Origin: Tagaea sp.
GTDB lineage: Bacteria > Pseudomonadota > Alphaproteobacteria > CACIAM-22H2
Length of the DNA stretch: 64,000 bases
Reading direction: 5' to 3'
Assembly (NCBI GenBank): GCA_965279525.1
Contig: CBDIIB010000004.1
Coordinates: 32,001-96,000 of the forward strand
The notes beneath the pieces are model-generated. The model worked only from the letters and a program-made list of their open reading frames with translations. It had not been told where the DNA came from and searched no databases. The first letter of the stretch is position 1, and each line of letters begins with the position of its first letter. Shown here in pieces: positions 4,776 to 21,791 of this stretch. The position numbers and the translations under genes are program-made.

Positions 4776-4791
4776 CCACGCGGCCGAAACG

Positions 4792-5970
4792 TCATACGCG
4801 ATGGACGTCGACCCACTTGCCGAGCTTTGTCGAGGCCAGGCACGCTTCGACGAATGCGAGGCCGTCGGCGCCCTCTTCGGCCATCGGTACGCTCGAAAAA
4901 AGCGGATCGGGCGCCATGTTGAGCCGGCGCGCGGCAACGAGTTCGGCGAAGTCCCGATAGAGATTCGCGAACGCCTCGAAGAATGCTTCCGGATGGCCGG
5001 CGGGAATGCGCGCGGCGGCGCGGGCGAGGGGATGCAGCGTGGGAAGGCCGCGCGTGCGGATCTCGGCCGGGCAGGCATTTCGCATGAAGCGCAATTCATT
5101 TGCCGTGGCCTGCTTCCAGGAAATGCCTCCGGCCTCGCCGTAAGCCTCGATCGACAGCGCGTTCTCGGCACCCGTTGCCGCTTTTGTGACGAACAGGGCA
5201 CCTCGCGCCCCGCCTTCGAGGCGGACGATCACCGATGCCGTGTCGTGTGCGGTACGGCCCGGAATGACCGCCCCGACGTCGGCAAGTACCGCCTCGATCC
5301 GCCGGCCAGTGACATAGCCGACAAGCTGATGCACGTGCGTGCCGATATCGCCGAGTACATGGCTGAGGCCGCCGCGCAGGGGATCGAGCCGCCATCGCAG
5401 CCGGTCGGGGATCTGTTCCGGATGGTCCTCGACGCGCGTGCCGAGCGAGCCCTGCAAATAGGACGCATGGACCACACGCAACTGGCCGATTTCGCCGGCA
5501 GCAATGGCGGCGCGCGCCTCGCGGACCATCGGATAGCCCGAATAGTTGTGCGTGACGCAGAGCAGGCGCTTGCGTGCCTTGGCGCGCGCGACGAGGTCGA
5601 GCGACGAGGCGAGATCGTTGGTCAGCGGCTTGTCACAGATCACGTCGAGTCCGGCATCGAGTGCGAGTGCGGCGTAGCCGTGATGGCTGTCATTCGGTGT
5701 CATGATGGCGACCGCGTCGATCCCGTCGGATCGTGCGGCTTCGCCGGCAACCATCGCCGCCACGCTTTCGTAGCCGCGCGGCAGGCCGAGGCGGGCGGCC
5801 TCCGAGAGCGCCTTATCTTTGTTCGATGACAGCGCGCCGGCGACGATGTCGAAGCATTCGTCGAGGCGTGCCGCGACGCGATGGACGGGACCGATCAACG
5901 CGCCGCTGCCGCCGCCGATGAGGCCGAGGCGCACGCGGCGGCCGAGTTTCGCAAGTGCGGGAGTCGACAT
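4792..5970 (-). CDS. Gfo/Idh/MocA family oxidoreductase
   Basis: GLIGGG, TPNDSH, CDKPL, DIGTH, GHPE motifs. Confidence 0.9.
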   Translation of the reverse strand: MSTPALAKLGRRVRLGLIGGGSGALIGPVHRVAARLDECFDIVAGALSSNKDKALSEAARLGLPRGYESVAAMVAGEAARSDGIDAVAIMTPNDSHHGYAALALDAGLDVICDKPLTNDLASSLDLVARAKARKRLLCVTHNYSGYPMVREARAAIAAGEIGQLRVVHASYLQGSLGTRVEDHPEQIPDRLRWRLDPLRGGLSHVLGDIGTHVHQLVGYVTGRRIEAVLADVGAVIPGRTAHDTASVIVRLEGGARGALFVTKAATGAENALSIEAYGEAGGISWKQATANELRFMRNACPAEIRTRGLPTLHPLARAAARIPAGHPEAFFEAFANLYRDFAELVAARRLNMAPDPLFSSVPMAEEGADGLAFVEACLASTKLGKWVDVHRV

Positions 5971-5981
5971 GTTCGGTTCTC

Positions 5982-6779
5982 TCAGCGCAGGCCGGCGTTC
6001 ACGAGAAGCATCTGTTTGGTGATCATCCGGCTGTCGTCGGCTGCAAGGAACAGTGCGGCATCGGCAACGTCCTGCTCGCGGACCATTTCAGGAATGCATT
6101 GCTGCGCGAGGATGCGGGCTGTCGATTCTGGCGTGTGCCAAAGCCGCATCTGCCGTTCGGTCATCACGGCACCCGGAGCAAGCGCGTTTACGCGGATGCG
6201 GTCGGGACCGAGCTGCCGGGCAAGAGAATTCGTCAACCCGACAATGCCGGCTTTCGCGGCGCTATAGGCTTGGAGGTCGGCGATGCCGCCGACCCATGCG
6301 CCGGAACTGACATTCACGATCGAGCCACCGCCGGCGGCGCGCATCTGCGGGGCGACGGACTGGGCGGCGAAGAAGTGGGGCCGCAGGTTGATGTCGATCG
6401 ACCGATCGAAGCTCTCGGGAGTCACCTCGGCAAAAGGCTGGCGTGAATCGTTTGCCGCGTTGTTGATCAGGATCGTCGCATTGCCGAGCCGCTTTCCGAT
6501 CGCGCCGATGGCCGCCTGGAACGCGGCGATGTCTGTCAGATCGCAATGCGTATAGGTCGGTGCCGTGTGTCCGGCGGCTGCAATTTCGTGCAGGAGCCTC
6601 TCAGCCGGCTCGTCCTGGATGTCCAAAAATGCGACGTGCGCGCCGTTCGCCGCGAACGCTCGTACGATCGCCTCGCCGATCCCCGATGCGCCGCCCGTGA
6701 CGATCGCGACACGACCTGCCAAGCTTGGATAGCGCGCGCCGCCGCCGCGCTTGTCATTTTGCTGATTCATCGGGTACAC
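5982..6779 (-). CDS. SDR oxidoreductase, resembles NAD-dependent D-xylose dehydrogenase type
   Basis: YPSL...TGGASGIG, NNAAND, YSAAK; start may be ATG at 6770. Confidence 0.85.
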   Translation of the reverse strand: MYPMNQQNDKRGGGARYPSLAGRVAIVTGGASGIGEAIVRAFAANGAHVAFLDIQDEPAERLLHEIAAAGHTAPTYTHCDLTDIAAFQAAIGAIGKRLGNATILINNAANDSRQPFAEVTPESFDRSIDINLRPHFFAAQSVAPQMRAAGGGSIVNVSSGAWVGGIADLQAYSAAKAGIVGLTNSLARQLGPDRIRVNALAPGAVMTERQMRLWHTPESTARILAQQCIPEMVREQDVADAALFLAADDSRMITKQMLLVNAGLR

Positions 6780-6971
6780 GGCTTAGTTTCCGCCAGCACT
6801 ATTGTCAACGGTCCGGCGATGCGGACGATATGCTGGCCGTCTTCCCGCCCTCGAATCATCCGAAGACCGGTCCGGAGACGAACGAGCTCATCCGGACTTC
6901 CCAGGCTCAGTCCGTGTAGGCAGCTTGGCAGCGTATTGACGGAATCCGGGAGAGGCAGCGGTAGGCGGGGT

Positions 6972-8075
6972 TCATGCGATCAAGACGCCCGTGGCCGGAT
7001 CGAAGAGGCAAACACGGCGCATATCGAGGGCAAACCGGCCACGGTCGCCGGGCTGCAGCCGTACGTCGGGCGACACGCGTGCGAGCGCACGCTCGCCGCC
7101 GAGGCGCGCGAGAACGATGGTCTCGGCGCCGGTCGGCTCAGTCATCTCGACGGGCAGTTCGAGGGTGACACGTTCTCCGCCGTGTCCGAACCGGCGATCT
7201 TCCTCCGCGATGCACTCGGGCCGCAGGCCGAGGACGACTTCGCGGCCGGCCTGTGCTGCAAATGCGGCGGGTAACGGCAGTGCAACGGCCGCCTCGCCTT
7301 GGCCGACCACTGCGCGCACTCCGTCCGAGGCGGTTTCGATGCGCGCCGGCAGCGTGTTCATCGGCGGCGCGCCCATGAAGCGCGCCACGAACAGGTTGGC
7401 CGGGCGGTTGTAGACCGTATCGGGGTCGGCGAATTGCTGGATCTCGCCCTGGTGCATCACTGCGATGCGCGTCGCCATCGTCATCGCCTCGATCTGGTCG
7501 TGGGTGACGTAGACATTGGTGGAGCGGATGCGCTGGTGGAGCTGCTTGATCTCCATGCGCATCTCGACGCGAAGCTTGGCGTCGAGGTTCGAGAGCGGCT
7601 CATCGAACAGGAACAGAAGCGGGTCGCGCACCAGCGCGCGACCCATCGCGACGCGCTGGCGCTGGCCGCCGGAGAGTTGCGAGGGCTTGCGGTCGAGCAG
7701 TTTCTCGATCTGGAGGAGGGCGGCGACCCGCGTCACGGCGGCTTCGCGCTCGCCCTTCGGCACGTTCCTGCACTCGAGGCCGAACGTGATGTTCTGGCGC
7801 ACAGTCATCGACGGATAGAGGGCGTAGGTCTGGAACACCATCGCGATGTTCCGGTCCTTGGGCGCAATGTCATTGACGATCCGGCCGCCGATCTCGACCG
7901 TACCGCCCGTCGCGGGTTCCAGACCGGCGATGATGTTCAGCAATGTCGACTTGCCGCAGCCCGATGGCCCGACCAGTACGGTGAACTCGCCGTTCTCGAT
8001 TTCCATGTCGATACCCTTGAGCACGGACATCGCCCCGAAGGACTTGGTTACACCGCTGAGACTGAGGGCCGACAT
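6972..8075 (-). CDS. Sugar ABC transporter ATP-binding protein (MalK/UgpC type)
   Basis: GPSGCGKST, LSGGQRQR, DEPLSNLDAKLR. Confidence 0.95.
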   Translation of the reverse strand: MSALSLSGVTKSFGAMSVLKGIDMEIENGEFTVLVGPSGCGKSTLLNIIAGLEPATGGTVEIGGRIVNDIAPKDRNIAMVFQTYALYPSMTVRQNITFGLECRNVPKGEREAAVTRVAALLQIEKLLDRKPSQLSGGQRQRVAMGRALVRDPLLFLFDEPLSNLDAKLRVEMRMEIKQLHQRIRSTNVYVTHDQIEAMTMATRIAVMHQGEIQQFADPDTVYNRPANLFVARFMGAPPMNTLPARIETASDGVRAVVGQGEAAVALPLPAAFAAQAGREVVLGLRPECIAEEDRRFGHGGERVTLELPVEMTEPTGAETIVLARLGGERALARVSPDVRLQPGDRGRFALDMRRVCLFDPATGVLIA

Positions 8076-8085
8076 TGAGATACTC

Positions 8086-8958
8086 CTACTTCACCGCGCC
8101 GGCCGTCAGCCCGCGCAGGAAGTATTTTCCGCCGAAAAGATAGACGAGCAACGTCGGCAATGCCGCGAGGACGACGGCCGCACTCTGCACGCCGTATTGG
8201 GGAACGTCGGCGATGGCCGCGTTGAGCCCGATTAGCGCCGCCGTCACCGGCTGCTGGCTGCCGTTCGTGAAGGTCACGCCGTAGAGAAACTCGTTCCAGA
8301 TATGGGTGAACTGCCAGATCACCGTCACGATCAGGATCGGCGGCGACAGCGGCAGCACAATCCTGAAGAAGGTACGGAAGAAGCCTGCGCCGTCGATGCG
8401 GGCGGCCTTCATCAGGTCCTGCGGAATGGAGACGTAGTAGTTGCGGCAGAACAGCGTGGTGAAGCTCATACCCTGAATTGTGTGGATCAGGACGAGTCCC
8501 GTTAGCGTGTTGATGAGGCCGATGTCGCGCAGGACGAAGGTCCAGGGAATCAGTCGTACCTGCTGCGGCAGGAAAATCCCGAGCGTGACCAATCCGAAGA
8601 TCCATGTGTCGCCGCGGAAGCGCCACAGCGAAATCGCATAGCCGGCGACCGCTCCCAGCAGAGTCGAGACGATGGTGGCGGGTATCGTCACCGCGGCCGA
8701 GTTCCACATGAAGGGCTGCAGCCCGGTGCAGGTCTGCGCGACGCAGAATTCCGACCACGCTTCGGCGTAGTTGGGGAAGGCCCAGCTTTCAGGCCATCCG
8801 ATCATCGAGCCTTGGGCGATCTCCTGCGCCGTGCGTAGCGAGTTGAGTACAACGACGAGGAAAGGCACGAGGAAGGCCAGGCCAAGGGCCCAGACCACCA
8901 CATGCGCCAGCAGCCGCCCCCAGGCGGGCATCGTGTCGGGCGTGGTCCGCTCAAGCAT
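8086..8958 (-). CDS. Carbohydrate ABC transporter permease
   Basis: TM segments, EAA-like KAARIDGAG; start MLERTT overlaps upstream stop. Confidence 0.92.
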   Translation of the reverse strand: MLERTTPDTMPAWGRLLAHVVVWALGLAFLVPFLVVVLNSLRTAQEIAQGSMIGWPESWAFPNYAEAWSEFCVAQTCTGLQPFMWNSAAVTIPATIVSTLLGAVAGYAISLWRFRGDTWIFGLVTLGIFLPQQVRLIPWTFVLRDIGLINTLTGLVLIHTIQGMSFTTLFCRNYYVSIPQDLMKAARIDGAGFFRTFFRIVLPLSPPILIVTVIWQFTHIWNEFLYGVTFTNGSQQPVTAALIGLNAAIADVPQYGVQSAAVVLAALPTLLVYLFGGKYFLRGLTAGAVK

Positions 8959-9886
8959 CGGCCGCGCGCCTCCGCCGTGCATACTTGAACAGCGCGTGCG
9001 GCACGAGCACGCCGAGCAGGGTCAGGAGCATCAGGACGGCGGCGGCCGCACCGCGCCCGATCTGGCCGCGCTGGAACATGAAGTCGTAGACGACGAGCGC
9101 GGGCAACTGGGTCGCGATGCCGGGGCCTCCGCCGGTCAGCGCGCGCACGAGGTCGAATGTCGTGATCGCCATCTGCAGCAGGATCACCAGCACGGCGACC
9201 ATGATCGGCCACAGCGTCGGCAGTATCACCCGCGTGTACATGCGCACCGGACCCGCGCCGTCGATCTGCGCCGCCTTGATCAGGTCGGGCTCCACCGAGC
9301 GCAGGCCCGCCAGCAGCAGTGCCATCGCGAAGCCGGCGGCCTGCCAGACGCCCGCGAGCACGATCGTCCAGATCGCCATCTCGCGATCCACGATCCAGTC
9401 GAACCGGAACCCGGCCCAACCGAGGTCGACGACCAGCTTCTGGATGCCCATGCCCGGATTGAGCAACCAGGACCACACGACGCCGGTGACCACGAACGAG
9501 ACCGCCATCGGATAGAGGAAGATCGAGCGCAGGACGTTCTCGCCGCGGATCCGCTGGTCGATCAGGATCGCGAGCAGCAATCCGGTCAGCATCGTGAACG
9601 CCACGAAGCCGCCGCCGAAGATGAACAGGTTGTCGAAGGCGATCTTCCAGTTCCGGGTCGCGAGAACGCTGGTGTAGTTGCGAAAGCCCACGAACTCGCT
9701 CACCGGCATCAGCGTCGAGGCTGTGAACGATATCCACACGGTCCATGCCGTGAAGACGACGATATGAGCGGCCGCGAGCAGCAGCGGTACCCATATCACC
9801 AGCAGTTCGGGCGCCCGCCGCAATGCCGCCGAAAGGGCGGATCGCGACGGGGGCCCGGCTGCAGAGGCGTGAACGTCGGCGGTCAA
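8951..9886 (-). CDS. Carbohydrate ABC transporter permease
   Basis: KAAQIDGAG loop; TTG start overlapping SBP stop (the 791-aa track ORF is an over-extension). Confidence 0.9.
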   Translation of the reverse strand: MTADVHASAAGPPSRSALSAALRRAPELLVIWVPLLLAAAHIVVFTAWTVWISFTASTLMPVSEFVGFRNYTSVLATRNWKIAFDNLFIFGGGFVAFTMLTGLLLAILIDQRIRGENVLRSIFLYPMAVSFVVTGVVWSWLLNPGMGIQKLVVDLGWAGFRFDWIVDREMAIWTIVLAGVWQAAGFAMALLLAGLRSVEPDLIKAAQIDGAGPVRMYTRVILPTLWPIMVAVLVILLQMAITTFDLVRALTGGGPGIATQLPALVVYDFMFQRGQIGRGAAAAVLMLLTLLGVLVPHALFKYARRRRAADA

Positions 9887-11178
9887 CGTGCGCTTGCCAC
9901 TGCCTCGCCGAGACGCTTCACCGCCTGATCCGGCGTGATGGCCTTGTTCTTCACGAACTCGGTCAGCACGTCGATCATAGCCGCGGTGATTCCGTTCTCC
10001 TGCGCCATGTTGTGCGCGAGACTGAGAACGGACTGGTTGATGGCGACCGACTCCTTGAGCGTGCGTGCCGCCTCGACCTGACCGGCGGACCAGCCGGCGC
10101 CCGAGAGATCGACGTCGGTGCGCACCGGGATCGAGCCGGTGATCTGCGAATACATCGTCTGGATCTCGGGCATCATGACCAGCTCGGCCATGAGCTTCTG
10201 GCCCGCCTGGAGATCGGCTTCCTTGCGCTGCCAGAAGATGAAGGCGTCCGCATTGAGCACGAAGACCGGCTTGCCGTTGTCCGTCGGCCCCGGCGCGATG
10301 ATGAAGTCGTCGAGCTTGAAGCCGCCGTTGAGCAGCACGCCCTGCGCCCAGCCGCCTTGGATCAGCATGCCCATCTCGCCGGCCACGAAGCGCGGTAGGA
10401 AAACCGAGAAGTGCTGTGCCGCAGTATTGGGATCCATCCAGTCGGCGATCTTGCGCAGTTGCGCGAACGCCGCGCGCACCTCCGGGCTGCCAAGCGCCTT
10501 GTCGTCGAGTTCCATGATCGCCTTGCGGTAGACGCCGGGGCTGATGCCCGCGAGAACGGCCTCGAACTTCTGGCCGTCGTCGGCGCGCGCGCCTCCGTTG
10601 GCGACCGGGTAAGGGACGCCGGCCGCCTTCATCTTCTCGCCGAGTTCGTTGAACTGGGCCCAGGTGGTCGGGATCTTGTCCGCCTTGGCCTTGTCCATCG
10701 CGCGTTTGGACAGGAACAGCGTGTTTGTACGGTAGACCTGCAGCGGCAGGGCCGACCATTTCCCGCCCGGCTTGTGCAGTCTCGCGAGATCGGGCGCCAC
10801 GACCTTCTCGTAGCCGGCGGCGGCTACCGTCGCGTCGAGATTCACCGTCGGCGCGATCTTGGACCACGCCGCAATCTCGGGCCCCTTGAGCTGCGAGCAG
10901 GCCGGCGGGTCGCCGGAAATGATCTGCGCGCGAAGCTTGTTCATCATGTCGGTCGTGAAGCCGGGGACAGGCGAGTGCTGCCACACGCCGCCGCGCTCCT
11001 CGAACTTCTTGCCGAGCGCGGTGATCGCGGCGCCATCGCTGCCGGCGGACCACTGGGAAATTGCCGTCAGTCGGGGCTTCACCGCCTGGGCGCGGGTGGC
11101 GAACGGCGTGGCCACCAGCGGCGCGGCCATGAGGCCGGCGGCACCGGCGAGGACGGAACGACGATGCATGGACGTCAT
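9883..11178 (-). CDS. Sugar ABC substrate-binding protein with Tat signal
   Basis: RRSVL twin-arginine signal; family-1 SBP-like; heads the ABC operon. Confidence 0.9.
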   Translation of the reverse strand: MTSMHRRSVLAGAAGLMAAPLVATPFATRAQAVKPRLTAISQWSAGSDGAAITALGKKFEERGGVWQHSPVPGFTTDMMNKLRAQIISGDPPACSQLKGPEIAAWSKIAPTVNLDATVAAAGYEKVVAPDLARLHKPGGKWSALPLQVYRTNTLFLSKRAMDKAKADKIPTTWAQFNELGEKMKAAGVPYPVANGGARADDGQKFEAVLAGISPGVYRKAIMELDDKALGSPEVRAAFAQLRKIADWMDPNTAAQHFSVFLPRFVAGEMGMLIQGGWAQGVLLNGGFKLDDFIIAPGPTDNGKPVFVLNADAFIFWQRKEADLQAGQKLMAELVMMPEIQTMYSQITGSIPVRTDVDLSGAGWSAGQVEAARTLKESVAINQSVLSLAHNMAQENGITAAMIDVLTEFVKNKAITPDQAVKRLGEAVASAR

Positions 11179-11287
11179 GGGGTTTCCTCTTCAGTTTTTC
11201 GCCAATTATTGTGACTGCTGTTGGCAAGACGAGGGTAGCGCGTAATTTGGCGGTAGCAATCGTTTTTTGGCGCAGACGACAGATTAG

Positions 11288-11588
11288 CCGATGTTCCCCA
11301 GATGCCCCTCTGGAGCGAGACGACATCCATCAGTCTGTCGGGTTCGCGAGGAGCCACAGTTTTCAGGCACGGTTTCCGCAGCCGTTAGCGGTGTTTGCGT
11401 CGTCGACTTTTCTCTTGTCTCCTCACTTTAACGCACTCCTTCCTTGGTGACGTCTCATTCGTGCCGTTCTGGTCCTAAGTTGGAGGCTGTCGTGGTCGCA
11501 GCCTGTCGATCAGCCGCAGGATGCGCTCGAGCGGCTCCTTCGGGACTGCGAACTCGGTCATCTGAAAGATGGCGTAGCGTGCGTGGCG
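11288..11588 (-). mobile_element. IS1380-family remnant (transposase C-terminus and probable right end)
   Basis: RHARYAIFQMTEFAVPKEPLERILRLIDRLRP* at 11588-11475; possible end CATCTGGGGAACATCGG at 11304-11288. Confidence 0.6.
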
Positions 11589-11590
11589 CT

Positions 11591-11770
11591 CGTCGATCAC
11601 GATGGAAGCGGAACTCTTCGTCGAGGCTCTGGAAGAAGCGCCAATCCGCTACGGCAAGCGGTAGACCTTCAACTCGGATCAGGGCCGCCAGTTAACCTGT
11701 TCCTCGTTCTTCGGCGTGCTTGCCGGCAAGCGCATTGCGATCTGCACTGACTGTAAGGGGGCGTGGCGCA
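11591..11770 (+). pseudogene. IS3-family transposase core fragment
   Basis: TMEAELFVEALEEAPIRYGKR*TFNSDQGRQL...CTDCKGAWR, a degenerate NSDQGSQF...DGKG core. Confidence 0.75.
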
Positions 11771-11944
11771 GGCTTTAGAAGCGTCCCGACGCGATAGCCT
11801 TTAGGGCGGATTTTTCGGTACGCTGTTGAGGAAGCGAGCCGTGAACCACGTGGATCCTATTCAATTGGCAGGTGCCTCTCAAACGTCGCCGAAGTTACGC
11901 ATTGACGGGTAGGGGGCTTGGCGTTCGACGCGCCTTCATTACCC

Positions 11945-12063
11945 TTGGTTTCCATTCATTTCCCTTAAATGCCGGAAATTATGGAAACGGCCATTGAAAT
12001 CATTGAATAACCGAAAGTCTGGGGGACTGGGGGTCGCAGGTTCGAATCCTGTCGCTCCGACCA
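11945..12063 (+). repeat. att junction 1: conserved arm plus tRNA-Pro 3'-half repeat
   Basis: AGTCTGGGGGACTGGGGGTCGCAGGTTCGAATCCTGTCGCTCCGACCA at 12016-12063 identical to the tRNA 3' part. Confidence 0.95.
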
Positions 12064-12080
12064 AATCGACTAGATAAAAC

Positions 12081-12111
12081 AAGGCCTTGGCGAGTGATCG
12101 CCAGGGCCTTT
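12081..12111 (+). terminator. Hairpin terminator type A, second copy
   Basis: AAGGCCTTGGCGA-gtga-TCGCCAGGGCCTTT. Confidence 0.7.
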
Positions 12112-12156
12112 CCTTTGGAAACTACTTGCCAGTTCTATTCCGCTCTGGAGCGGTAC

Positions 12157-12582
12157 TCAACCTGGCGCCTTAAATGCAACTTCCATGCGGCGATGAGCGA
12201 AGCGCCAGCCTTCCTTGCTGCGCACGTAGTCATCGAAATACTGCCCGACCATCATCGGCCCCTGCATCGGCGTCGGGCCATCTTTGGCTGGTTCGACCGA
12301 GCGGTAGAGCGTGAAATACGATGTTCCTCTGGCGTGATCGGCATCGACGACTTCGACCTGGATGTTGGTCGAGATGTGTCGCGTCAGCGACATCGCCTTG
12401 CCGTCGAGATAGCGCCTTATATCGGCGTGCCCCTTGAGCGGACCGATCATCGAGGCCCACGTGCCATCCGCTGCCCAGAGCTTCGTCAGCGCCTCGTGCG
12501 AACGGGCATCGACCAATAGACAGTAGGCGGTGACGAGGCGCGCACATGCGTGCTCGATGGCGATGCGGTCGCTCTCGGTCAT
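12157..12582 (-). CDS. NTF2/SnoaL-like protein
   Basis: MTESDRIAIEHACARLVTAY...TRHISTN...GQYFDDYVR...GWRF. Confidence 0.85.
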   Translation of the reverse strand: MTESDRIAIEHACARLVTAYCLLVDARSHEALTKLWAADGTWASMIGPLKGHADIRRYLDGKAMSLTRHISTNIQVEVVDADHARGTSYFTLYRSVEPAKDGPTPMQGPMMVGQYFDDYVRSKEGWRFAHRRMEVAFKAPG

Positions 12583-13574
12583 GTTCGATCCTTTCGGGGT
12601 GCGACGACGCACTGGGCGATTGCGCCGAAGACGCTGCAGCCCGCACGATCCAGCATCTCGATATGAAGCGTGTCGCCGGCGTCGAGATAGGCGGTGCGCG
12701 GCGCGCCGAATTCCATCGTCTCGAGCATTCGCGTTTCCGCGATGCAGGCCGTGCCGGCGCCGGCATCGCGGTTCGAGACGGTGCCCGATGCGATTAGCGT
12801 GCCGGCGCCCAAGGAGCGCGACAGGCTCGCGTGCGAGACGAGGTCTCGGAAATCGAACGACATGTCGAGACCGGCGTCGGGCCGCCCAAGCGGCTTGTTG
12901 CCGATGCGACAATGCAGCTTCAGCGATACCTTGCCGCCGTCCCAGGCGTCGCCCAATTCGTCGGGTGTGGCGACGACAGGTGCAAGCACGCCCGCCGTCT
13001 TGCCGTGGTACGAGGTCTTGCCCTCGGCCGCCTCGCGCGCGAAGACGGTGCGCAGGCTGACGTCGTTCATCAACGTGACGAGCTTGATATGGACGCCGGC
13101 CGCGTCGCGCGACGTGCCCTGCTTGACGTCGTCGACAATGACGGCGATCTCGCCCTCGATGTCGAGGCCAACGTCACCCGGCGGAAGTTCGATGGGGTCG
13201 TGCGCGGCGAGAAACGGACCTGGCATGCGCACGCTCATCAGCGGCTCGCGCCGGTAAATCTCGGGGAAGGGAGCATTGCGCAGCTTGCGCGCGCGCTCCA
13301 TGTGGGTGAGGTAGACGCTGCTGTCAATCCAGCCGAAGGCACGCGGCAGTGGTGGACCAAGCGCGCCGGGATCAAGGCGGATCGCGTCGGGCGCGCGACC
13401 GCCCTCGAGTCGATCGAATAGCGCAGCGAGCTTCGGCGCCGCCGCGTCCCAGCAATCGAGTGCGGCCTGCAGCGTCGGCGCGATCCCAGTCGCCAAGACA
13501 GCGCGCGCGAGATCGCGGCTGACGACAACCAGCCGGCCGTCACGAGATCCGTCGCGTATGGCGCCGAGCTTCAT
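12579..13574 (-). CDS. Fumarylacetoacetate hydrolase family protein
   Basis: RDGRLVVVSRDL, DIEGEIAV, NDVSLR, SGTVSN. Confidence 0.9.
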   Translation of the reverse strand: MKLGAIRDGSRDGRLVVVSRDLARAVLATGIAPTLQAALDCWDAAAPKLAALFDRLEGGRAPDAIRLDPGALGPPLPRAFGWIDSSVYLTHMERARKLRNAPFPEIYRREPLMSVRMPGPFLAAHDPIELPPGDVGLDIEGEIAVIVDDVKQGTSRDAAGVHIKLVTLMNDVSLRTVFAREAAEGKTSYHGKTAGVLAPVVATPDELGDAWDGGKVSLKLHCRIGNKPLGRPDAGLDMSFDFRDLVSHASLSRSLGAGTLIASGTVSNRDAGAGTACIAETRMLETMEFGAPRTAYLDAGDTLHIEMLDRAGCSVFGAIAQCVVAPRKDRT

Positions 13575-14747
13575 TCAGGCGGACTTTCCGCCGTGGCCCT
13601 TCGCGTCGGGCGCGCTCTTGATCGATCCAAGCCAGGTTTCGGCGTAGCCGAAGAACTCGCCGCCGGCGGGTTGGTCGGCGATCCCGAGCCCATCGAGCGC
13701 GTCGATCATCACCGAGTAGTTCTCGAAGCTCTTGGCTGGATGCGTATGCATGAAAGGCAGCACTTCAGGGTGGGGCCCGTGCGTGATGCCGCGCGGATGC
13801 AGCGTCAGCATGCCGGCGCCGATCGTGTTGCCGCGGCTGCTGAGATTGCCGCTGTGGTAGAAGATCAGTTCGTCATAGTCCTCGTTGTTGTGGAAGAACG
13901 GCAGCTTGATCGCACCAGGATCGGTCTCGATCGGGCGCGGGACGAGCGAGCAGACAACAAAGCGGTCGGCGATGAAGGTTGTGCGGGCCGACGGCGGCAG
14001 ATGAAGGCGCGGGCTGACCACCGCGCGGATATCGCGCAGGTTGAGCCGCACCGGATGGAGGTCACCCTTCCAGCCGACAGCGTCGAGCGGATTGAACGGA
14101 TAGACGATGCGGCCGATCTGGCCGGCACGCCTGACGTCGACGCGCCATTCGCCGTCACGGCGCTGGGCACGGAAGTGCTCGTCGAGTGCTGGCACGTCGA
14201 GCACGCCAGTGTCGAACATCGCGTGCCGCCCGAGCAGGCCCCGGTCTGGCAGGCGGTAGGAGCTGCCTGTTGCCTCGACCATCAAGAGTTCGACAGGCTC
14301 GACCATTTCGAGGCGCCACATCGTGCCGCGCGGCAGCAAGATGTAGTCGCCAGGCTCAAAGGCAAGGTGGCCGTAGTCGCAGAACAGGTGGCCGGTGCCC
14401 TTGTGTACGAACAGCAGTTCGTCGCCGTCGCTGTTCCGCACGAGGTGGTCCATCGAAACGACTCCGCGCCAGATACGGACTTGGACGTGCGCGTTGCCGA
14501 CGAGCGGATGTGCGGCAAGGGGGGATGCCGTCGGCTCGATCACTGACAGCGGGCTGAACGCGCGCGGCCGGATTGGCCCTTCGACGGCCAGCCATGCGGT
14601 TGGTGGATTGCGGTGGTACATGTGCGCGGCCGCGCCGAAGAACCCGTCGCGACCGATCTCGCGCTCGAACGAGTTCGCCGGGATGTCAGCATGTGCCTGC
14701 CGGGCGGCCATCCCCTCGACATGCGGCGTTGCGAGATTGGTAGGCAT
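13575..14747 (-). CDS. hmgA: Homogentisate 1,2-dioxygenase-like
   Basis: RNSDGDELLFVH, PFFHNNEDYDE, THGPHP (Fe ligands H/E/H). Confidence 0.85.
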   Translation of the reverse strand: MPTNLATPHVEGMAARQAHADIPANSFEREIGRDGFFGAAAHMYHRNPPTAWLAVEGPIRPRAFSPLSVIEPTASPLAAHPLVGNAHVQVRIWRGVVSMDHLVRNSDGDELLFVHKGTGHLFCDYGHLAFEPGDYILLPRGTMWRLEMVEPVELLMVEATGSSYRLPDRGLLGRHAMFDTGVLDVPALDEHFRAQRRDGEWRVDVRRAGQIGRIVYPFNPLDAVGWKGDLHPVRLNLRDIRAVVSPRLHLPPSARTTFIADRFVVCSLVPRPIETDPGAIKLPFFHNNEDYDELIFYHSGNLSSRGNTIGAGMLTLHPRGITHGPHPEVLPFMHTHPAKSFENYSVMIDALDGLGIADQPAGGEFFGYAETWLGSIKSAPDAKGHGGKSA

Positions 14748-14795
14748 CGGGCTGTCTCCTCGACTTGGTCAGCTCGTCCGTTTGTGGCGGGTGAT

Positions 14796-14814
14796 GACCG
14801 CAATACGGACAAAT
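14796..14814. promoter_or_regulatory. Putative IclR operator 1
   Basis: GACCGCAATACGGACAAAT upstream of hmgA; related copies at 15832 and 21773. Confidence 0.6.
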
Positions 14815-14881
14815 GTCCATAATTGAAAATAGCCGATGGAAGGCACAGCGACAAGCCCTTCGCGGGCGCCGTATGAGTTGC

Positions 14882-15679
14882 TCAGCTGCGCCAGCCGATC
14901 GGATTATCGGAGCGGACGATGATTTCCTCGATCTCGGCCGCCGCCTTCTTGAGCAGCGGCAGGACATTCTTGCCCATGTCGGCCTTCGACAGGCGCCCAG
15001 TATGGGCGCCGACGCTGAGGCCGGCTGCCACGCGCCCGCTGCGCGCACGCACCGGCACGGCGATCGCCCGCAAGCCTTCCTCGACCTCCTGATCGATCAG
15101 CGCGTAGCCGTTGGTCCGCGTCTCGTCGAGCACGCGCCGTAAATCGGCCTCGCCGATCACCGTGAAGCGTGTGTTGGGCGTGCGCTTGTGGCGGCGCAAG
15201 AATGCGTCGAGATCTTTGGGCGCAAGGTCGGCCAGCATCACCCGGCCGATCGAATTGCAGAACGCCGGCAGGCGCGAGCCGAGATTCACCTGCAGGCCCA
15301 TCAGGTGCTTGGGCGGCACGCGTGCGACGTAGACGACATCGGCGCCGTCGAGAACACCCATCGTGCAGGACTCATTCAGCGTCTCGACGACTTGTTGCAT
15401 GATCGGCAGCGGTGCTTCCCAGATGCGCAGTGACGAAAGGTAGGCAAAGCCTAGATCGAGAGTACGCGGTGCGAGCCAGAACTTCTTGCCATCCGTGCGG
15501 ACATAGCCGAGCGCTTCGAGCGTCAGCAGGAAGCGCCGCGCGGTTGGCCGCGACAGGCCGGTTCGCTCGGCTACCTCGGCGAGCGTCTGGCTCGCCGAGT
15601 TTTCACCGAAACTCTTGATGACGGTGAGGCCGCGCGCCAGCGACGTGACAAAATCCTGCGAGTCTTCGTCAATCGCCAT
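14882..15679 (-). CDS. IclR-family regulator (PcaR/PobR type)
   Basis: DFVTSLARGL, TARRFLLTL, GSRLPA, DQEVEEGLRAIAVP. Confidence 0.93.
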   Translation of the reverse strand: MAIDEDSQDFVTSLARGLTVIKSFGENSASQTLAEVAERTGLSRPTARRFLLTLEALGYVRTDGKKFWLAPRTLDLGFAYLSSLRIWEAPLPIMQQVVETLNESCTMGVLDGADVVYVARVPPKHLMGLQVNLGSRLPAFCNSIGRVMLADLAPKDLDAFLRRHKRTPNTRFTVIGEADLRRVLDETRTNGYALIDQEVEEGLRAIAVPVRARSGRVAAGLSVGAHTGRLSKADMGKNVLPLLKKAAAEIEEIIVRSDNPIGWRS

Positions 15680-15831
15680 CGGAAGATCCAGATGTTGGAA
15701 AGGGAGTTGCGATTTTGTCCAAGTCACGCGCGATAATCTACTGAATTGCGTTTCCGAATGCGCCGTTTGTGGGCGAGACTCTTGACTCGCCTGCAGGCCG
15801 TCCATACGCTTGTACGCTTAGTGGTCAAAAT

Positions 15832-15850
15832 ATCCGTATCGCGGACAAAT
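15832..15850. promoter_or_regulatory. Putative IclR operator 2
   Basis: ATCCGTATCGCGGACAAAT in the divergent iclR/SDR intergenic region. Confidence 0.6.
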
Positions 15851-15894
15851 GGCCAAAACTGGCCGGCGACTGAAGCGGGGGAAACCGGGCGACG

Positions 15895-16641
15895 ATGGGA
15901 CGTCTTGCAGGCAAAGTCGCGATCGTCACAGGTTCGGCCCGTGGCATGGGAGCGGTCGAGGCGCGGCTGTTCGCGCGTGAGGGTGCCGCCGTCGTCGTTT
16001 GCGATGTGCTCGACGAGCGGGGCCGCAAGACCGCCGCCGACATCTGCGCCGGTGGAGCCGCTGCCATCTATCTCCATCTCGACGTCACATCCCAACCGGA
16101 CTGGCAGGCACTGGCAGAACAGGCGAAGGCCTGGCGCGGCCGCATCGACATCCTCGTCAATAACGCGGGCATCAACATTCGGGGCGGTATCGACAGGCTC
16201 GTGCTCGATGACTGGCACAAGGTCCTTGCGGTCAATCTGACGGGTCCGTTACTCGGCATGAAGACGATCGCGCCTGTCATGCGCGAGACTGGTGGAGGTT
16301 CGATCGTGAACATCGCCTCGAACGCTGCCCTATTGCCGGCGGCATCGGCTGCCTATACGTCCGGCAAGTGGGGCCTGCGCGGCCTCGGCAAGGTCGCCGC
16401 GGCCGAATTCGCGCCTTGGCAGGTACGGGTCAACACGGTCTGCCCCGGCGTGGTGCCGACGGAGCTCAACGAAGGCCAGCCTTATCTCAAAACCGTCGTC
16501 GGCAAGACGCCGCTCGGCCGGATCGGGGCGGCGGAGGACGTCGCCAACGCGGTTCTCTTCCTTGCCTCCGACGAGTCGAACTTCATTACTGGCGCCGACC
16601 TGCCGGTCGATGGCGGTTTTATCGTTGGTGCGGCGCGATGA
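15895..16641 (+). CDS. SDR family oxidoreductase
   Basis: TGSARGMG, NNAG, YTSGK. Confidence 0.92.
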   Translation: MGRLAGKVAIVTGSARGMGAVEARLFAREGAAVVVCDVLDERGRKTAADICAGGAAAIYLHLDVTSQPDWQALAEQAKAWRGRIDILVNNAGINIRGGIDRLVLDDWHKVLAVNLTGPLLGMKTIAPVMRETGGGSIVNIASNAALLPAASAAYTSGKWGLRGLGKVAAAEFAPWQVRVNTVCPGVVPTELNEGQPYLKTVVGKTPLGRIGAAEDVANAVLFLASDESNFITGADLPVDGGFIVGAAR

Positions 16642-16669
16642 GGGCATATCGACAGCGAGGAGCGCAGCC

Positions 16670-17503
16670 ATGAGCGAGAAGAGCAAGAACCGCGCACCGG
16701 TCGCAGTCGTTACGGGCGGGCGCCGCGGGATCGGGCGCGCCATATCCGTGGCGCTCGTCGAAGCGAAGTTCGACGTCGTCATCGTCGATCTCGAGGAGGA
16801 TGCCGACGCACGCGCCACGCTGGCCGAGATCGCCGAGCGCAAGGGCCGCGCGAAGTTCGTTGCCGGCGACATCGGGGCGCTGGACAGGCGTGTTGAACTC
16901 GTTGACGGCATCTTCGCGGCGTTCGGGACAGTGGATTGCCTCGTCAACAACGCCGGCGTTCTGTCGGGCGTGCGTGGGCAGGACCTGCTGACGGTGACGC
17001 CCGACGTCTTCGATCGGGTGATGAATGTCAACCTGCGCGGCACGTTCTTCCTGACGCAGGAAATCGCAAAGCGCATGGTCGCCGAGGACGAGGCTGGAAC
17101 CGGTCGCCCGGTCGGCCGCAGCATCGTTACGATCACTTCGGGGGCCGTCGGCCGCGCACGGACGGATTCCCCGGAATACTCCTTCTCGAAGACGAGCCTG
17201 GCGCTCATGTCGCAGATCTTTGCGGTCCGGCTCGGTCGACATAATATTGCAACTTACGATTTGCGACCCGGCGTCACGCGTACCGAGATGAGCCGCAGTG
17301 CCTGGGGCATGTATGAGGAACTCGTCGAGGAAGGTCGTTTCCCGATCCGCCGACTCGGCCTGCCCGACGACATCGCTCGTGCCGTTGTGACGCTCGCGTC
17401 AGGCGGTCTCTCCTACGTCACCGGTGGATTCATCACAATCGACGGCGGGTTCGGCATCCCAGCATCTGTCATGCCGCGTCGCCCGCCCGCTGACAAGAAA
17501 TAG
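16670..17503 (+). CDS. SDR family oxidoreductase
   Basis: TGGRRGIG, NNAG, YSFSK; AGGAG RBS before ATG 16670. Confidence 0.92.
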   Translation: MSEKSKNRAPVAVVTGGRRGIGRAISVALVEAKFDVVIVDLEEDADARATLAEIAERKGRAKFVAGDIGALDRRVELVDGIFAAFGTVDCLVNNAGVLSGVRGQDLLTVTPDVFDRVMNVNLRGTFFLTQEIAKRMVAEDEAGTGRPVGRSIVTITSGAVGRARTDSPEYSFSKTSLALMSQIFAVRLGRHNIATYDLRPGVTRTEMSRSAWGMYEELVEEGRFPIRRLGLPDDIARAVVTLASGGLSYVTGGFITIDGGFGIPASVMPRRPPADKK

Positions 17504-17518
17504 CGGCGGCCGGCGCGC

Positions 17519-18118
17519 ATGTATTATGACCCACGCAAGAAAGACCATGGCCTGCCGCATGACCCGTTCACCGCGCTGGTCGTGCCACGCCCGATCGGCT
17601 GGATCTCAACCCTCGACCGGGAAGGGCGGGTCAATCTGGCGCCGTACAGCTACTTCAACGCGCTGTCGGGACGGCCACCCTTCGTGATGTTCTCGAGCAC
17701 GCCAGCCAAGCATTCGCAGACCAACGCCGAGGCGACAGGCGAGTTCGTCGCAAATCTCGCTACCTACGACCTGCGCAAGGAGGTCAACGCGACATCAGAG
17801 GCCGTGCCGGCCGGCGTCGACGAAGCAGCCCTCGTCGGTCTCGAGATGGTGGCGTCTGTTGCCGTCCGGCCACCGCGCGTCAAGCGCTCGCCGGTCGCGC
17901 TGGAGTGCCTCTACAACAGCAGCGTGGTACTGCGCCCGCGCGACGGGTCGACGATGTCGACCACCATTGTCCTCGGCGAAGTCGTCGGAATCCATATAGA
18001 TGACTCACTGCTCGTCGACGGACGCGTTGACTTCCTGAAGATGCGCCCGCTTGCGCGGCTCGGCTACATGGATTACGGCACACTCGATACGGTGTTCGAA
18101 ATGAAGCGTCCCGGCTGA
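17519..18118 (+). CDS. Flavin reductase-like protein
   Basis: VPRPIGWIST, NLAPYSYFN, PLARLG. Confidence 0.9.
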   Translation: MYYDPRKKDHGLPHDPFTALVVPRPIGWISTLDREGRVNLAPYSYFNALSGRPPFVMFSSTPAKHSQTNAEATGEFVANLATYDLRKEVNATSEAVPAGVDEAALVGLEMVASVAVRPPRVKRSPVALECLYNSSVVLRPRDGSTMSTTIVLGEVVGIHIDDSLLVDGRVDFLKMRPLARLGYMDYGTLDTVFEMKRPG

Positions 18119-18137
18119 CCGCGAAGGAGATGCCGCG

Positions 18138-19121
18138 TTGACAGTCTGGCTTCTCCGCCGTCTGCTTCAGGCCGTTTTCGTCATCTGGGTGATGACGCTG
18201 ATCGTCTTCGTGGCGCTGCACGTGATCGGCGATCCCGTGGATATTCTCAGCAATCCGGCTTCCGGCGAAGCCGAGCGGCTGCGCATGACGCAGTCACTGG
18301 GCCTCGACAAGCCGCTGTGGCAGCAGTACCTCGCCTTCGTCGGCGGCGCGCTGCAGGGCGACCTTGGCCGCAGCTTCATCTTCAACGACCCGGCGCTGCA
18401 ATTGATCGTCCGTCGCATGCCGGCCACCCTAGAGCTGGCGCTGACGGCTATGTTTCTCGCGGTGCTGATCGGCATTCCGCTCGGTCTCGTCGCCGGCCTT
18501 TTTCCCAAAGCGACCGCGTCGAAGGCAATCATGGCCGGCAGCATTCTCGGCTTCAGCCTGCCGACGTTCTGGGTCGGCCTGATGCTGATCATGGTGTTCA
18601 GCGTCAATCTTGGTTGGCTGCCGACGACCGGGCGCGGCAAGACGGCCGAGCTGTTCGGCATTCAGTGGTCGTTCCTGACCACCGACGGACTGAGACATCT
18701 GTTCATGCCGGCGCTCAATCTGGCGCTGTTCCAGCTTTCGCTGGTGCTGCGCCTGACGCGCGCAGGTGTGCGCGAGACGCTGCCGCTGGATTTCGTCAAG
18801 TTTGCGCACGCCAAGGGCCTCACGAAGAGACGCGTCGTGTTGGTGCACGTCCTCAAGAACATCCTGATCCCGGTCGTGACGGTCGTCGGGCTCGAGTTCG
18901 GATCGACCGTCGCCTATGCGGTCGTGACCGAGACCATCTTCGCGTGGCCCGGAATGGGAAAGCTCATCATCGACAGCATCTACACGCTAGATAGGCCGGT
19001 AATCGTCGCCTACCTGATGCTGGTCGTCGTATTTTTCACGTTCATCAATCTCGCGGTCGATCTCGTCTACACGTTCCTCGACCCGCGTGTGCGGCTTGAA
19101 ACACGAGGTAACACCGGATGA
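18138..19121 (+). CDS. Peptide/nickel ABC permease (DppB type)
   Basis: GLDKPLWQQY, PATLEL, AKGL, ETIFAWPGMG. Confidence 0.93.
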   Translation: MTVWLLRRLLQAVFVIWVMTLIVFVALHVIGDPVDILSNPASGEAERLRMTQSLGLDKPLWQQYLAFVGGALQGDLGRSFIFNDPALQLIVRRMPATLELALTAMFLAVLIGIPLGLVAGLFPKATASKAIMAGSILGFSLPTFWVGLMLIMVFSVNLGWLPTTGRGKTAELFGIQWSFLTTDGLRHLFMPALNLALFQLSLVLRLTRAGVRETLPLDFVKFAHAKGLTKRRVVLVHVLKNILIPVVTVVGLEFGSTVAYAVVTETIFAWPGMGKLIIDSIYTLDRPVIVAYLMLVVVFFTFINLAVDLVYTFLDPRVRLETRGNTG

Positions 19122-20029
19122 GCGCCGGCACGTCGACCGCAGAACTCGGCGAGGGAGTCGAGACGCCGTTCATGCGCTTCGCGCGCGACTTCACCGAATC
19201 GCGCGTCGCAACTGTGGGCTTGGCCGCATTGGCGGCCATTGCATTCCTGGCGGTTTTTGCGACCTGGGTGGCGCCGCAGAACCCCTACGATCTTGTGCAA
19301 CTCGACATCATGGACAGTCGGCTGCCGCCGGGCAGCCCCGCGTCGGCAGGGTTCACCTATTGGCTTGGCGTGGACGGACAGGGACGCGACATGTTGTCGG
19401 CGATTCTCTACGGCCTGCGCATCTCGCTTGGCGTCGGCGCCGGTTCGGCGCTCATCGCTGGCGCGATCGGCGCCAGTCTCGGCCTGCTGGCCGGCTATGT
19501 CGGCGGCTGGGTCGACGCGCTGATCATGCGGTTCGTCGATCTGCAGCTCTCCTTTCCGACAATTCTCGTGGCGCTGATGATCGTCGCGTTTCTCGGCAAG
19601 GGTGTGATGAATGTGGTGCTGGCCCTGGTGATCGTCGAGTGGGCCTATTACGCACGAACGGCGCGCGCGGCTGCCTTGGTCGAGCGCCGCCGGGAGTACA
19701 TCGAGGCCGCTGAATGCCTCGCGCTGCCGCGCTGGCGCGTGCTGTTCGTCCACATGCTGCCAAACTGTCTGCCGCCACTGATCGTGATCACGGCGATCCA
19801 GGTTGCGCGCGCGATCGCATTGGAGGCAACGCTGTCTTTTCTCGGGCTCGGCGTGCCGCCAACCGAACCCTCGCTCGGAATGCTGATTGCCAACGGGTTC
19901 GACTTCATGCTGTCGGGGCGCTACTGGGTCAGCTTCTATCCCGGTGTGGCATTGCTTGTCACGATCGTCTCGATCAACGTCGTCACCGACCAGTTGCGCG
20001 ACGTGCTTAACCCGCGCATCACCCAGTGA
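19118..20029 (+). CDS. Peptide/nickel ABC permease (DppC type)
   Basis: LGVDGQGRD, YIEAA, EATLSFLGLG. Confidence 0.93.
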   Translation: MSAGTSTAELGEGVETPFMRFARDFTESRVATVGLAALAAIAFLAVFATWVAPQNPYDLVQLDIMDSRLPPGSPASAGFTYWLGVDGQGRDMLSAILYGLRISLGVGAGSALIAGAIGASLGLLAGYVGGWVDALIMRFVDLQLSFPTILVALMIVAFLGKGVMNVVLALVIVEWAYYARTARAAALVERRREYIEAAECLALPRWRVLFVHMLPNCLPPLIVITAIQVARAIALEATLSFLGLGVPPTEPSLGMLIANGFDFMLSGRYWVSFYPGVALLVTIVSINVVTDQLRDVLNPRITQ

Positions 20030-20849
20030 ATTTTGCCGCTTCGAACCAGTCCCATTCCCACGGCACGATGGCGCGCAGCGGGCTATCGAACGACACCTGT
20101 TCGATGTCCGAGACGTCGCGCAGGCGACCGGCACGACGCAAAGCCACGTCGCGCGCTTCGCGGTCGGCGACAAATTCAAGCGGATCCTCGTCGAGATAGA
20201 GAATCGTCAAGCGGTTAGGTGCCGCGGCTGGATCGCGCGTGTTGCTGTCGGGGAAATTCCAGCTCGGTCCGCTGTCCTCGCCCCACTCGTGACGGAACAG
20301 GTCATCGGCCGCCAGTGTCCACGCTCCGGCCACGCCCCGGCACTGCAGCAGATCGGGAATACGGACTTCGTCGTACCAGCGAAACAGTGCGTGCGCACCC
20401 GGCGCCTTCGGATCGACGGTCGACAGCGTGATATGCACGCCCTTGGTCGGGCAAAACGGCAGGATGTCGGCCGTGACGGGAAGGCGCGGGCCCGCGTAGC
20501 CCTTGATCGGCGAGAACAGGCCGCGCATCGGGCGCTTCGTCCAGCGCACCTGCGGCGATCGGCCCCACTGGAACGAACGCTCCGAAAGCATGAAAAAGTC
20601 GTCGAGCGTCTCGCGGATCGGCTCGCGGAACCAGTACATGACCCCGTAGTGCGTACTTGCCAGTGACGGTGCCACGGTGCGGCTCGCCGACATGCAATCG
20701 GGCGAGCGGACCCAGCGGTCGTTCCACACGATGCCAGGCAGGATCAGGTTCTCCGGAATGTGGTCGAGCTGGTGCCATTCATTGTGCGCCCGATGTTTGG
20801 TCGGGTCGGTAATCTCGGCAAGCGAGAAATAGGCTTTGGCGGCGAACAT
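20019..20849 (-). CDS. Hypothetical protein, possible EthD-like dimeric alpha/beta barrel; paralog of next gene
   Basis: HNEWHQLDHIPENLILPG and WYDEVRIPDLLQCRGVAGAW repeats. Confidence 0.6.
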   Translation of the reverse strand: MFAAKAYFSLAEITDPTKHRAHNEWHQLDHIPENLILPGIVWNDRWVRSPDCMSASRTVAPSLASTHYGVMYWFREPIRETLDDFFMLSERSFQWGRSPQVRWTKRPMRGLFSPIKGYAGPRLPVTADILPFCPTKGVHITLSTVDPKAPGAHALFRWYDEVRIPDLLQCRGVAGAWTLAADDLFRHEWGEDSGPSWNFPDSNTRDPAAAPNRLTILYLDEDPLEFVADREARDVALRRAGRLRDVSDIEQVSFDSPLRAIVPWEWDWFEAAKFTG

Positions 20850-20854
20850 GGGCG

Positions 20855-21643: not shown

Positions 21644-21772
21644 GACGGCTTCCTGTCGTGGACGATGGCCTCGACGCTATCGGCGCGGTGTGCGGAGATC
21701 AAGCGGCATGGCAGTTCACGGTCGCCATGTTGACACGTACCGGTGCAGCGCCTATCCTAAAAATGGACAATC

Positions 21773-21791
21773 ATCCGCTATGCGGACAAAT
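21773..21791. promoter_or_regulatory. Putative IclR operator 3
   Basis: ATCCGCTATGCGGACAAAT in divergent intergenic region. Confidence 0.6.

Follow-up and report, generated by a model that had tools for sequence, protein, structure and literature searches.

A tandem array of integrase-less islands at tRNA-Pro(GGG) in Tagaea sp., bounded by a conserved multi-box arm that resembles the P arm of a lambda-type attachment site

Results and Discussion

The array behind tRNA-Pro(GGG)

The window, by which we mean the whole stretch of 64,000 nucleotides analyzed here, contains a single tRNA gene, a tRNA-Pro(GGG) on the plus strand. Behind it lies a tandem array of integrase-less islands (Table 1). 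The att core comprises 45 bp of the gene (1405-1449), from CTGGGGG, which is the anticodon loop, to the CCA. A repeat of this core follows every arm, unchanged in copies 1 to 3 and decayed in copy 4. Units 1 to 5 measure approximately 10.5, 12.4, 6.2, 21.9, and 36 kb. The first three have att sites at both ends, with cores equal to the tRNA 3' half and intact arms; the cores of units 4 and 5 are decayed. The fifth junction (C4:121023-121134) lies outside the window on the same contig, and its core has a deletion. A core-only fragment is present further along (C4:125339), and a solitary decayed copy of the arm is located outside the window at C5:689477-689600.

Unit 1 begins with a class-a terminator, and the cargo of unit 2 resembles an aromatic-breakdown set with a peptide-type transporter. 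Other features were recorded in their own right. In unit 3 (25327-26325), an IS integrase-core fragment (rve_3, 119 aa) adjoins a TauD family gene cut to its last ~60 residues, which looks like an IS-mediated truncation. Part B of unit 4 holds a complete potassium-uptake system (kdpA, kdpB, kdpC, kdpD, and a response regulator; 44766-52536). Unit 5 encodes a 1,419-aa protein combining CheB methylesterase, CheR methyltransferase, PAS, histidine kinase, and receiver domains (56279-60538), followed by a PgaA-like outer-membrane protein (61225-63945). The apparently decayed core of copy 4 (52926-52970) is a GGTTCGAATACGGC-like variant in common with junctions L066, L073, and L093 of other genomes; it may be an old and separate target fragment instead of one that decayed at random.

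Table 1. Features of the tRNA-Pro(GGG) array in the window.
Feature	Position	Strand	Content	Basis
tRNA-Pro(GGG), intact, head of the array	1373-1449	+		ARAGORN, sequence, repeats of the 3' part
Unit 1, island without integrase	1450-11935		KDPG aldolase, dehydratase, oxidoreductases, sugar ABC transporter	Pfam; 0 PF00589 matches
Arm 1 (P arm of unit 1)	11936-12018	+
Arm 1, box 1	11947-11954		GGTTTCCA
Arm 1, box 2	11959-11964		TTTCCC
Arm 1, box 3	11972-11978		CCGGAAA
Arm 1, box 4	11982-11988		TGGAAAC
Arm 1, A/T-rich repeat	11992-12008		CATTGAAATCATTGAAT
Core copy 1, tRNA-Pro(GGG) 3' half	12019-12063	+	Exactly equal to 1405-1449
Unit 2, left end	12064-12122	+	Class-a terminator hairpin, then one inverted box TGGAAAC (12116-12122)
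Unit 2, island without integrase	12123-24466		SnoaL-like, FAA hydrolase, dioxygenase-like, IclR regulator, SDRs, flavin reductase, peptide-type ABC transporter, BKACE	Pfam
Arm 2	24467-24549	+	Box 3 degenerate
Core copy 2	24550-24594	+	Unchanged relative to the tRNA 3' half
Unit 3, island without integrase	24595-30797		IS rve_3 fragment, truncated TauD, secretin, Sel1-repeat protein	Pfam
Arm 3	30798-30880	+	Box 4 is CGGAAAA
Core copy 3	30881-30925	+	Unchanged relative to the tRNA 3' half
Unit 4, part A	30926-44715		Lyase, AMP-ligase, FAD oxidoreductase, creatininase, peptide ABC transporter, Zn-ADH	Pfam
A/B scar	44709-44724	+	9-base core tail TCAGACCGT (44716-44724)
Unit 4, part B	44725-52843		Response regulator, KdpD, KdpC, KdpB, KdpA	Pfam
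Arm 4	52844-52925	+	Boxes intact, ATTGA repeat decayed to TCGA
Core copy 4	52926-52955	+	Degenerate past ~20 bp
Unit 5, start	52956-64000		Continues past the window to a fifth arm and core (G000:C4:121023-121134)

A Pfam scan found no tyrosine integrase or relaxase among the 62 ORFs of the window. PF00589 occurs at ten places in the genome, none of them in the array, and the closest is 160 kb away. No orthologue of the cognate integrase described below is present in the assembly (97% complete, five contigs), where the top match reaches 26% identity. That resident integrase (C4:286359-287324) was rejected as a server of the arms, its context being unrelated and the boxes absent. By their sequence, the units of the window have the make-up of CIMEs: integration and transfer genes are absent and att sites are found at both ends. 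The combination of own integrase and relaxase that distinguishes an IME was found in none of the units across the 62 ORFs.

Layout and abundance of the arm

The four copies of the arm begin at 11945, 24476, 30807, and 52853, with CTGGGGG at 12019, 24550, 30881, and 52926 (74, 74, 74, and 73 bp on). The likeness of the copies starts sharply ~83 bases ahead of the core repeat and the sequences farther upstream are unrelated, giving an arm of ~75-85 bp. Two direct boxes (GGTTTCCA and TTTCCC) face two inverted ones (CCGGAAA and TGGAAAC), and CATTGAAATCATTGAAT follows. Copy 2 has a degenerate box 3, copy 3 a degenerate box 4, and copy 4 a degenerate ATTGA repeat. A preliminary description of this DNA had reported four such copies 73-74 bp ahead of CTGGGGG, with paired direct and inverted boxes that are degenerate in places and with no integrase in cis. 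Its coordinates were all verified, the layout agrees with the sequence of each copy, and the absence of an integrase extends from the array to any orthologue in the assembly.

The motifs of the arm are rare elsewhere. CATTGAAATCATTGA, allowing up to three mismatches, has five matches in the window, where 0.51 would be expected. The arms account for four, three of them exact and one (52899) with three mismatches; the fifth (4276, minus strand, three mismatches) is unrelated and not an arm. GTTTCCA is found 15 times against 4.08 expected, and eight of these occurrences are within or beside arms. The direct pair GTTTCCA-N3-4-NTTTCC[AC] occurs four times in the 4.35 Mb genome, each time in an arm of the window.

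Single boxes had also been described just inside the left ends of units 2 and 3, and here the outcome is divided. The box of unit 2 recurs, with an inverted TGGAAAC after the class-a terminator in five of eight class-a left ends (12116-12122 included) and after another terminator at L093. For the TGGAAA of unit 3 (24650), comparable left ends offer no equivalent, and its occurrence is probably due to chance.

An alternative reading of the inverted boxes is that they are not protein sites but the two sides of a functional hairpin in RNA or DNA, for example a regulatory RNA, terminator, or cruciform. GTTTCCA can pair with TGGAAAC and TTTCC with GGAAA, and the DNA fold reaches -10 kcal/mol. Across 54 copies, however, the proportion of paired cells (84.3%) is close to that of shuffled alignments (83.4%; 18 of 500 reach the observed value), as is the covariation score (0.072 versus 0.063; 52 of 500 reach it). 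In the inner helix, 26% of cells do not pair, and the z-score of the fold is a weak -1.8. No Rfam family matches the arm at its gathering score, the top match having 21 bits against a gathering score of 80, and a search of the arm found no promoter-like site. We rejected the hairpin and give it very little credence.

The intact element in relatives

Relatives of the window's genome supply an integrase for these arms. In three of the five arm-bearing genomes checked, a PF00589 integrase lies within 1 kb behind tRNA-Pro(GGG). The 384-aa integrase of one relative (G047) has 12 matches at E <= 1e-20 in 11 of 50 genomes, all from the same genus. Eight of the 12 are 57-100% identical, and all eight sit directly behind tRNA-Pro(GGG). 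Each of these loci has three direct heptamers at an 11-bp period in the ~60 bases between the terminator of the tRNA and the start codon. The heptamer is GTTTCCA in six loci and TTTTCCA in two, and it is the box of the arm. With three direct heptamers at 8 of 8 integrase loci and four boxes in the arm, the same short box thus occurs on both arms.

Behind the integrase gene of G047 come a 146-aa ORF, encoded on the opposite strand, and then a MobA/MobL (MobQ-type) relaxase; 14 ORFs were scanned in the first 20 kb of the ~30-kb unit. The first 6.7 kb of this integrase module is 88-90% identical in G040. Judged by its genes, the intact head element is an integrative mobilizable element with integrase and MobA/MobL relaxase, as far as scanned (G047, first 20 kb). 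The arm would be the far end of the element (P arm) and the three heptamers at the integrase its P' arm.

The structure predicted for the integrase agrees with this assignment. The model, built from 30 sequences, has a mean pLDDT of 83 and comprises three strands and a helix (residues 13-56), a helical domain (68-148), and a catalytic domain (from 179). Its top PDB matches are full-length chains of lambda integrase (1z1g_A, E 7.6e-12, 378 aligned columns). Pfam detects the catalytic domain alone in the integrase of a relative, and it is by predicted fold only that the N-terminal domain appears to be of the arm-binding kind. The family is small, with 29 protein clusters at 41% identity or more among 5.8 billion.

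The boxes might instead be operators for another protein of the element, such as a recombination directionality factor or a repressor, for instance the 146-aa ORF; the arm would still belong to an att site. The heptamers occupy the space where the integrase promoter must be, this uncharacterized ORF adjoins the integrase gene in G047, and a co-inherited factor would produce the same change of box with lineage as that described below. Against this, searches of Pfam, NCBIfam, and PHROGs returned no family for the 146-aa ORF, a matching N-terminal domain is present in the integrase model, and boxes on both arms and in both orientations around a core form the layout of arm-type integrase sites. 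We consider the operator improbable. The small ORFs beside the integrase likewise have no family match in these three databases, and with zero matches their identification as an excisionase was rejected.

Other observations were made at proline tRNA genes. The window's genome contains an element of ~100 kb at tRNA-Pro(CGG) outside the window (G000:C3:89801-189413), with a displaced tRNA fragment at C3:189369. Its integrase lies on the opposite strand directly behind the tRNA, and TGGCAGT/ACTGCCA boxes are found at both ends. It was rejected as a server of the arms, being a different integrase in opposite orientation with TGGCAGT-type boxes.

The T stem of tRNA-Pro(GGG) exists in two compensating versions in the genus, GCAGG/CCTGT and GTGGG/CCCGC. 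Both versions are also found in displaced fragments, which therefore appear to record the tRNA version of the donor or former host. In contigs labelled Telmatospirillum sp. MAG (L136, L142, and L150), displaced tRNA-Pro fragments share a ~14-base GC-rich hairpin-like insertion between anticodon stem and T arm.

Conservation and spread of the arm

The arm and core were searched in 50 genomes of the same family, that of the window included. Among the matches listed, full arms were confined to the genus of the window (12 of 21 genomes), with none in 29 genomes from 14 other genera. Partial likeness was seen in two genomes of other genera, again among the matches listed, beyond which lie 61 weaker matches. 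Most arm-bearing genomes have several copies in series behind the same tRNA.

An alignment was made of 58 copies from 12 genomes, leaving out one truncated copy, one partial copy, and one from another genus. The 58 arms are from one genus and kin by descent, and the resulting profile is descriptive and carries no statistical test: mean information per column is 1.70 bits in box 1, 1.35 in box 2, 1.28 in box 3, and 1.74 in box 4, with 1.37 in the A/T repeat, 0.48-0.91 in the five spacers, and 0.32 in the upstream flank. Boxes 1 and 4 exceed the tRNA-derived core (1.36 bits per column).

On a broader scale, the pattern of the arm was scanned through 185,579 species, with one genome for each and ~3 chance matches estimated. 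It was found at 27 loci. Twenty belong to the Rhodospirillales lineage of the window (Tagaea and other Rhodospirillales MAGs), and in all of them a core or decayed core follows. The remaining seven are in unrelated taxa, where there is no core and the likeness is limited to the pattern.

These results bear on the preliminary description, which had stated that its reading would fall if the motif were widespread away from tRNA cores or if the boxes were conserved no better than the spacers in a larger alignment; neither was the case. Its identification of the boxes as arm-type integrase sites is upheld by the shared heptamer, the conservation of the boxes, their change with integrase lineage, and the predicted fold. 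Its further statement that they are kept under selection cannot be carried over to the window's genome, because without a cognate integrase the arms there may be young relics. The box-specific conservation would instead reflect selection during the mobile life of the elements.

Change of the boxes with integrase lineage and the A/T-rich element

Boxes differ between integrase lineages. An integrase relative of 38% identity at tRNA-Pro(CGG) has three copies of GTTGGAA in its P' arm, and three P arms at tRNA-Pro(CGG) junctions have an inverted TTCCAAC adjoining CATTGAT. One of these three junctions (L107) has a single GTTGGAA on the P' side. Relatives of 42% identity, also at tRNA-Pro(CGG), have TTTTCTAC-like repeats ahead of the gene, and the P arms of that lineage show weak likeness to this P' box. 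At GGG sites, a second type of arm (G039, G035, G032, and G045) keeps TTTTCCA-N28-TGGAAA(C) with the inner boxes replaced. The match of box to lineage is inexact at the first base in G042, where box 1 of the P arm is GTTTCCA as opposed to TTTTCCA ahead of its integrase. The ATTGA(A/T) beside the core is constant across the integrase lineages. A box that varies with the recombinase next to an invariant element is what would be expected of arm-type sites beside a host-factor site.

The A/T-rich element is a direct repeat of 9-bp period between the arm boxes and the core. It was compared with WATCAANNNNTTR, which we take to be the IHF consensus; each half agrees at ~7 of 9 specified positions, a partial match. 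This incomplete agreement, together with the period and placement of the repeat, would also suit a pair of excisionase (Xis-like) sites in place of an IHF site. The tandem Xis sites of lambda have this same placement in the P arm. On the other side, ATTGA(A/T) stays constant in lineages with differing arm boxes, as is expected for a host factor, the TTGATW of those lineages is the exact complement of the WATCAA half, and a host gene for IHF-alpha scores above the curated cut-off. IHF is favored because of this constancy and the presence of its gene: the element at 11992-12008, the IHF-like repeat of the preliminary description, is a candidate IHF site, with IHF the likeliest bending protein, and excisionase is a less likely alternative whose tandem sites would suit the element just as well.

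A model of the attachment site

Taken together, the arm is very probably the P arm of a lambda-type att site, belonging to a family of mobilizable islands of one Rhodospirillales genus that would insert in the anticodon loop of tRNA-Pro(GGG). Intact elements, as seen in relatives, are ordered as follows: the tRNA, the element's own terminator, three direct (G/T)TTTCCA heptamers at an 11-bp period (P'), the tyrosine integrase, a small ORF, the MobQ relaxase, the cargo, the P arm, and the displaced tRNA 3' half. The sequences show the anatomy, the conservation of the boxes, their presence ahead of the integrase, and their change with integrase lineage, and the model gives the predicted fold class; from these we infer integrase binding to the boxes, bending of the arm, and the exact point of crossover. 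The N-terminal domain would occupy TTTCCA-type boxes, of which the P arm has two direct and two inverted copies and the P' arm three, and the core-binding and catalytic domains would act on a core formed by the anticodon stem-loop. A protein bending CATTGAAATCATTGAAT between boxes and core would allow one integrase molecule to span both arm and core.

Each new insertion at the tRNA would displace the earlier island outward, its P arm and core becoming an internal junction, and a tandem array would grow in this way. Because the integrase-bearing head element is absent from the window's genome, the five units there are integrase-less, CIME-like islands. Their arms would be inert at present and usable again if a cognate element entered.

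Do integrase-less units move?

A comparison with G047 bears on this question. Parts A and B of unit 4 are 92% and 91% identical in that genome (chromosomal flank 89%). There, B precedes A, and both are separate units closed by an arm and core of their own; in the window, A precedes B. The arm of A and most of a core have been deleted in the window at a 7-bp microhomology (CTGTCGC), so that only a 9-base core tail remains at the junction with B. In both genomes, A and B lack an integrase and start at the same bases. Because the order of A and B is opposite and each is bounded by an arm and core in G047, the junctions appear to be points of breakage and joining used since the separation of the two lineages. 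The change of order would be explained by an integrase that acted on a circle of two units; RecA-dependent recombination between the identical 45-bp cores could equally bring it about without an integrase. The opposite order suggests that integrase-less units move.

Further comparisons concern the boundaries of units. An 11.6 kb stretch within unit 5 of the window's genome is a stand-alone unit in G040. Solo att sites of ~190 bp were found three times in G047 (L054:386-478, L056:382-474, and L057:385-477) and once in G040 (L070). They are ordered as core, integrase-type terminator, and two or three P' heptamers fused to the rest of the P arm, followed by a variant core CCAAAGGAC. Much as in solo LTRs, the entire interior of the element has been lost. 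The three of G047 are more alike mutually than to other arms. Contigs from four public runs were compared with 11800-31100; they break at the repeats, and the core-core joints seen are short-sided (20-35 letters) and mostly from other organisms. A joint of 30828 to 11972 in these contigs was rejected as a core-core junction, being merely another arm variant.

A contrary explanation is that the arms are dead relics of complete elements, each of which lost its integrase by deletion, so that the units never moved and homologous recombination changed their order. The cognate integrase is absent from the genome, decay is seen in copies 4 and 5 and in the solitary copy, a deletion scar lies between A and B (44709-44724), and the solo P'/P fusions of G047 and G040 represent whole interiors lost by deletion. 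Three observations argue otherwise. No unit contains remnants of an integrase or relaxase. Integrase-less units start with terminators of classes a and b, whereas class c lies ahead of every integrase. In addition, A and B keep the same boundaries, with no integrase inside, in two genomes where their neighbors differ. We regard the relics as a serious possibility, somewhat short of an even chance.

A more far-reaching proposal, tentative and rather doubtful in our estimate, is that the tRNA-Pro(GGG) locus works as an integron on the scale of islands, with one head integrase serving integrase-less cargo units of ~6-36 kb. If this were true, the units, each ending in a P arm and core, would be excised singly or in blocks and re-inserted in altered order, and they would pass between strains by means of the relaxase of the head element. 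The conserved arms would then be selected as cassette ends and not be relics.

Implications

The analysis provides a complete att model for an integrase family not previously described, in which a core in the anticodon loop is combined with four boxes on the P arm, three on the P' arm, and a candidate site for bending. It also indicates that a freshwater genus of Rhodospirillales carries long arrays of metabolic islands at one tRNA gene, most units being without an integrase of their own. Among the cargo are genes for potassium uptake, for the transport of sugars and peptides, and for aromatic breakdown. Such units would be missed by island finders that demand an integrase in each unit, so the share of these genomes that is mobile or was recently mobile is underestimated. 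With A and B in opposite order in two genomes, there is a concrete case on which the cis- or trans-mobilization of integrase-less islands can be examined. The listed titles and abstract openings of papers under the genus name contain nothing on islands or integrases.

Comparison with known systems

The attP site of lambda has P and P' arms with arm-type Int sites and with IHF and Xis sites. The site described here is similar in that its core is flanked by arms with a short repeated box unlike the core sites. Three direct boxes lie on the integrase-proximal arm, boxes of opposite orientation on the other, and an A/T-rich element by the core; the predicted structure of the integrase also best matches full-length lambda Int. 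It differs in the sequence of the box and in having a P arm of four boxes arranged as an inverted pair of pairs. Its target is the anticodon loop of a tRNA, and the element is a mobilizable island with a relaxase rather than a phage.

As described in the accessible text of PMC5704250, CIMEs have no integration or transfer genes but keep their att sites, and arrays arise by site-specific accretion. The accretion of ICEs and IMEs there (ICESt1/ICESt3 of Streptococcus thermophilus) resembles the present case, with tandem elements at the 3' end of a target gene, att sites kept, and, in relatives, an integrase-bearing mobilizable element at one end of the array. Compared with that account of ICESt1/ICESt3, the arrays are much longer here, with five junctions and one core-only fragment in the window's genome. 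The array of G047 has ten arm-core junctions and one arm-only fragment. The host here is alphaproteobacterial and the cargo metabolic, and cis-mobilization is a possibility suggested by sequence comparison.

Islands centered on the anticodon, as found by Islander/TIGER, are alike in their insertion in the anticodon loop, the restoration of the tRNA 3' half, and the displaced fragment at the far end, to go by the accessible text of PMC4383910. Islander accepts a tandem member only with its own integrase and, in that text, reports four arrays of at least three among 3,919 islands (PMC4383910). Since each member needs an integrase, arrays like that of the window would be undercounted.

The closest published picture of long arrays, within the sources available to us, appears to be that of the ssrA islands of Dehalococcoides. 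The accessible text of PMC3146451 describes tandem islands bounded by a direct repeat of the 3' end and an adjacent conserved motif, some without an integration module and suggested by the authors to be cis-mobilizable. The likeness lies in the many tandem islands behind one small-RNA gene, bounded by repeats and an extra motif. According to the same text, the Dehalococcoides islands use a CcrB-like serine recombinase, with a repeat of 20 bp and an adjacent motif of 15 bp (PMC3146451); the islands described here have a tyrosine integrase, a 45-bp repeat, and a multi-box arm of ~75-85 bp.
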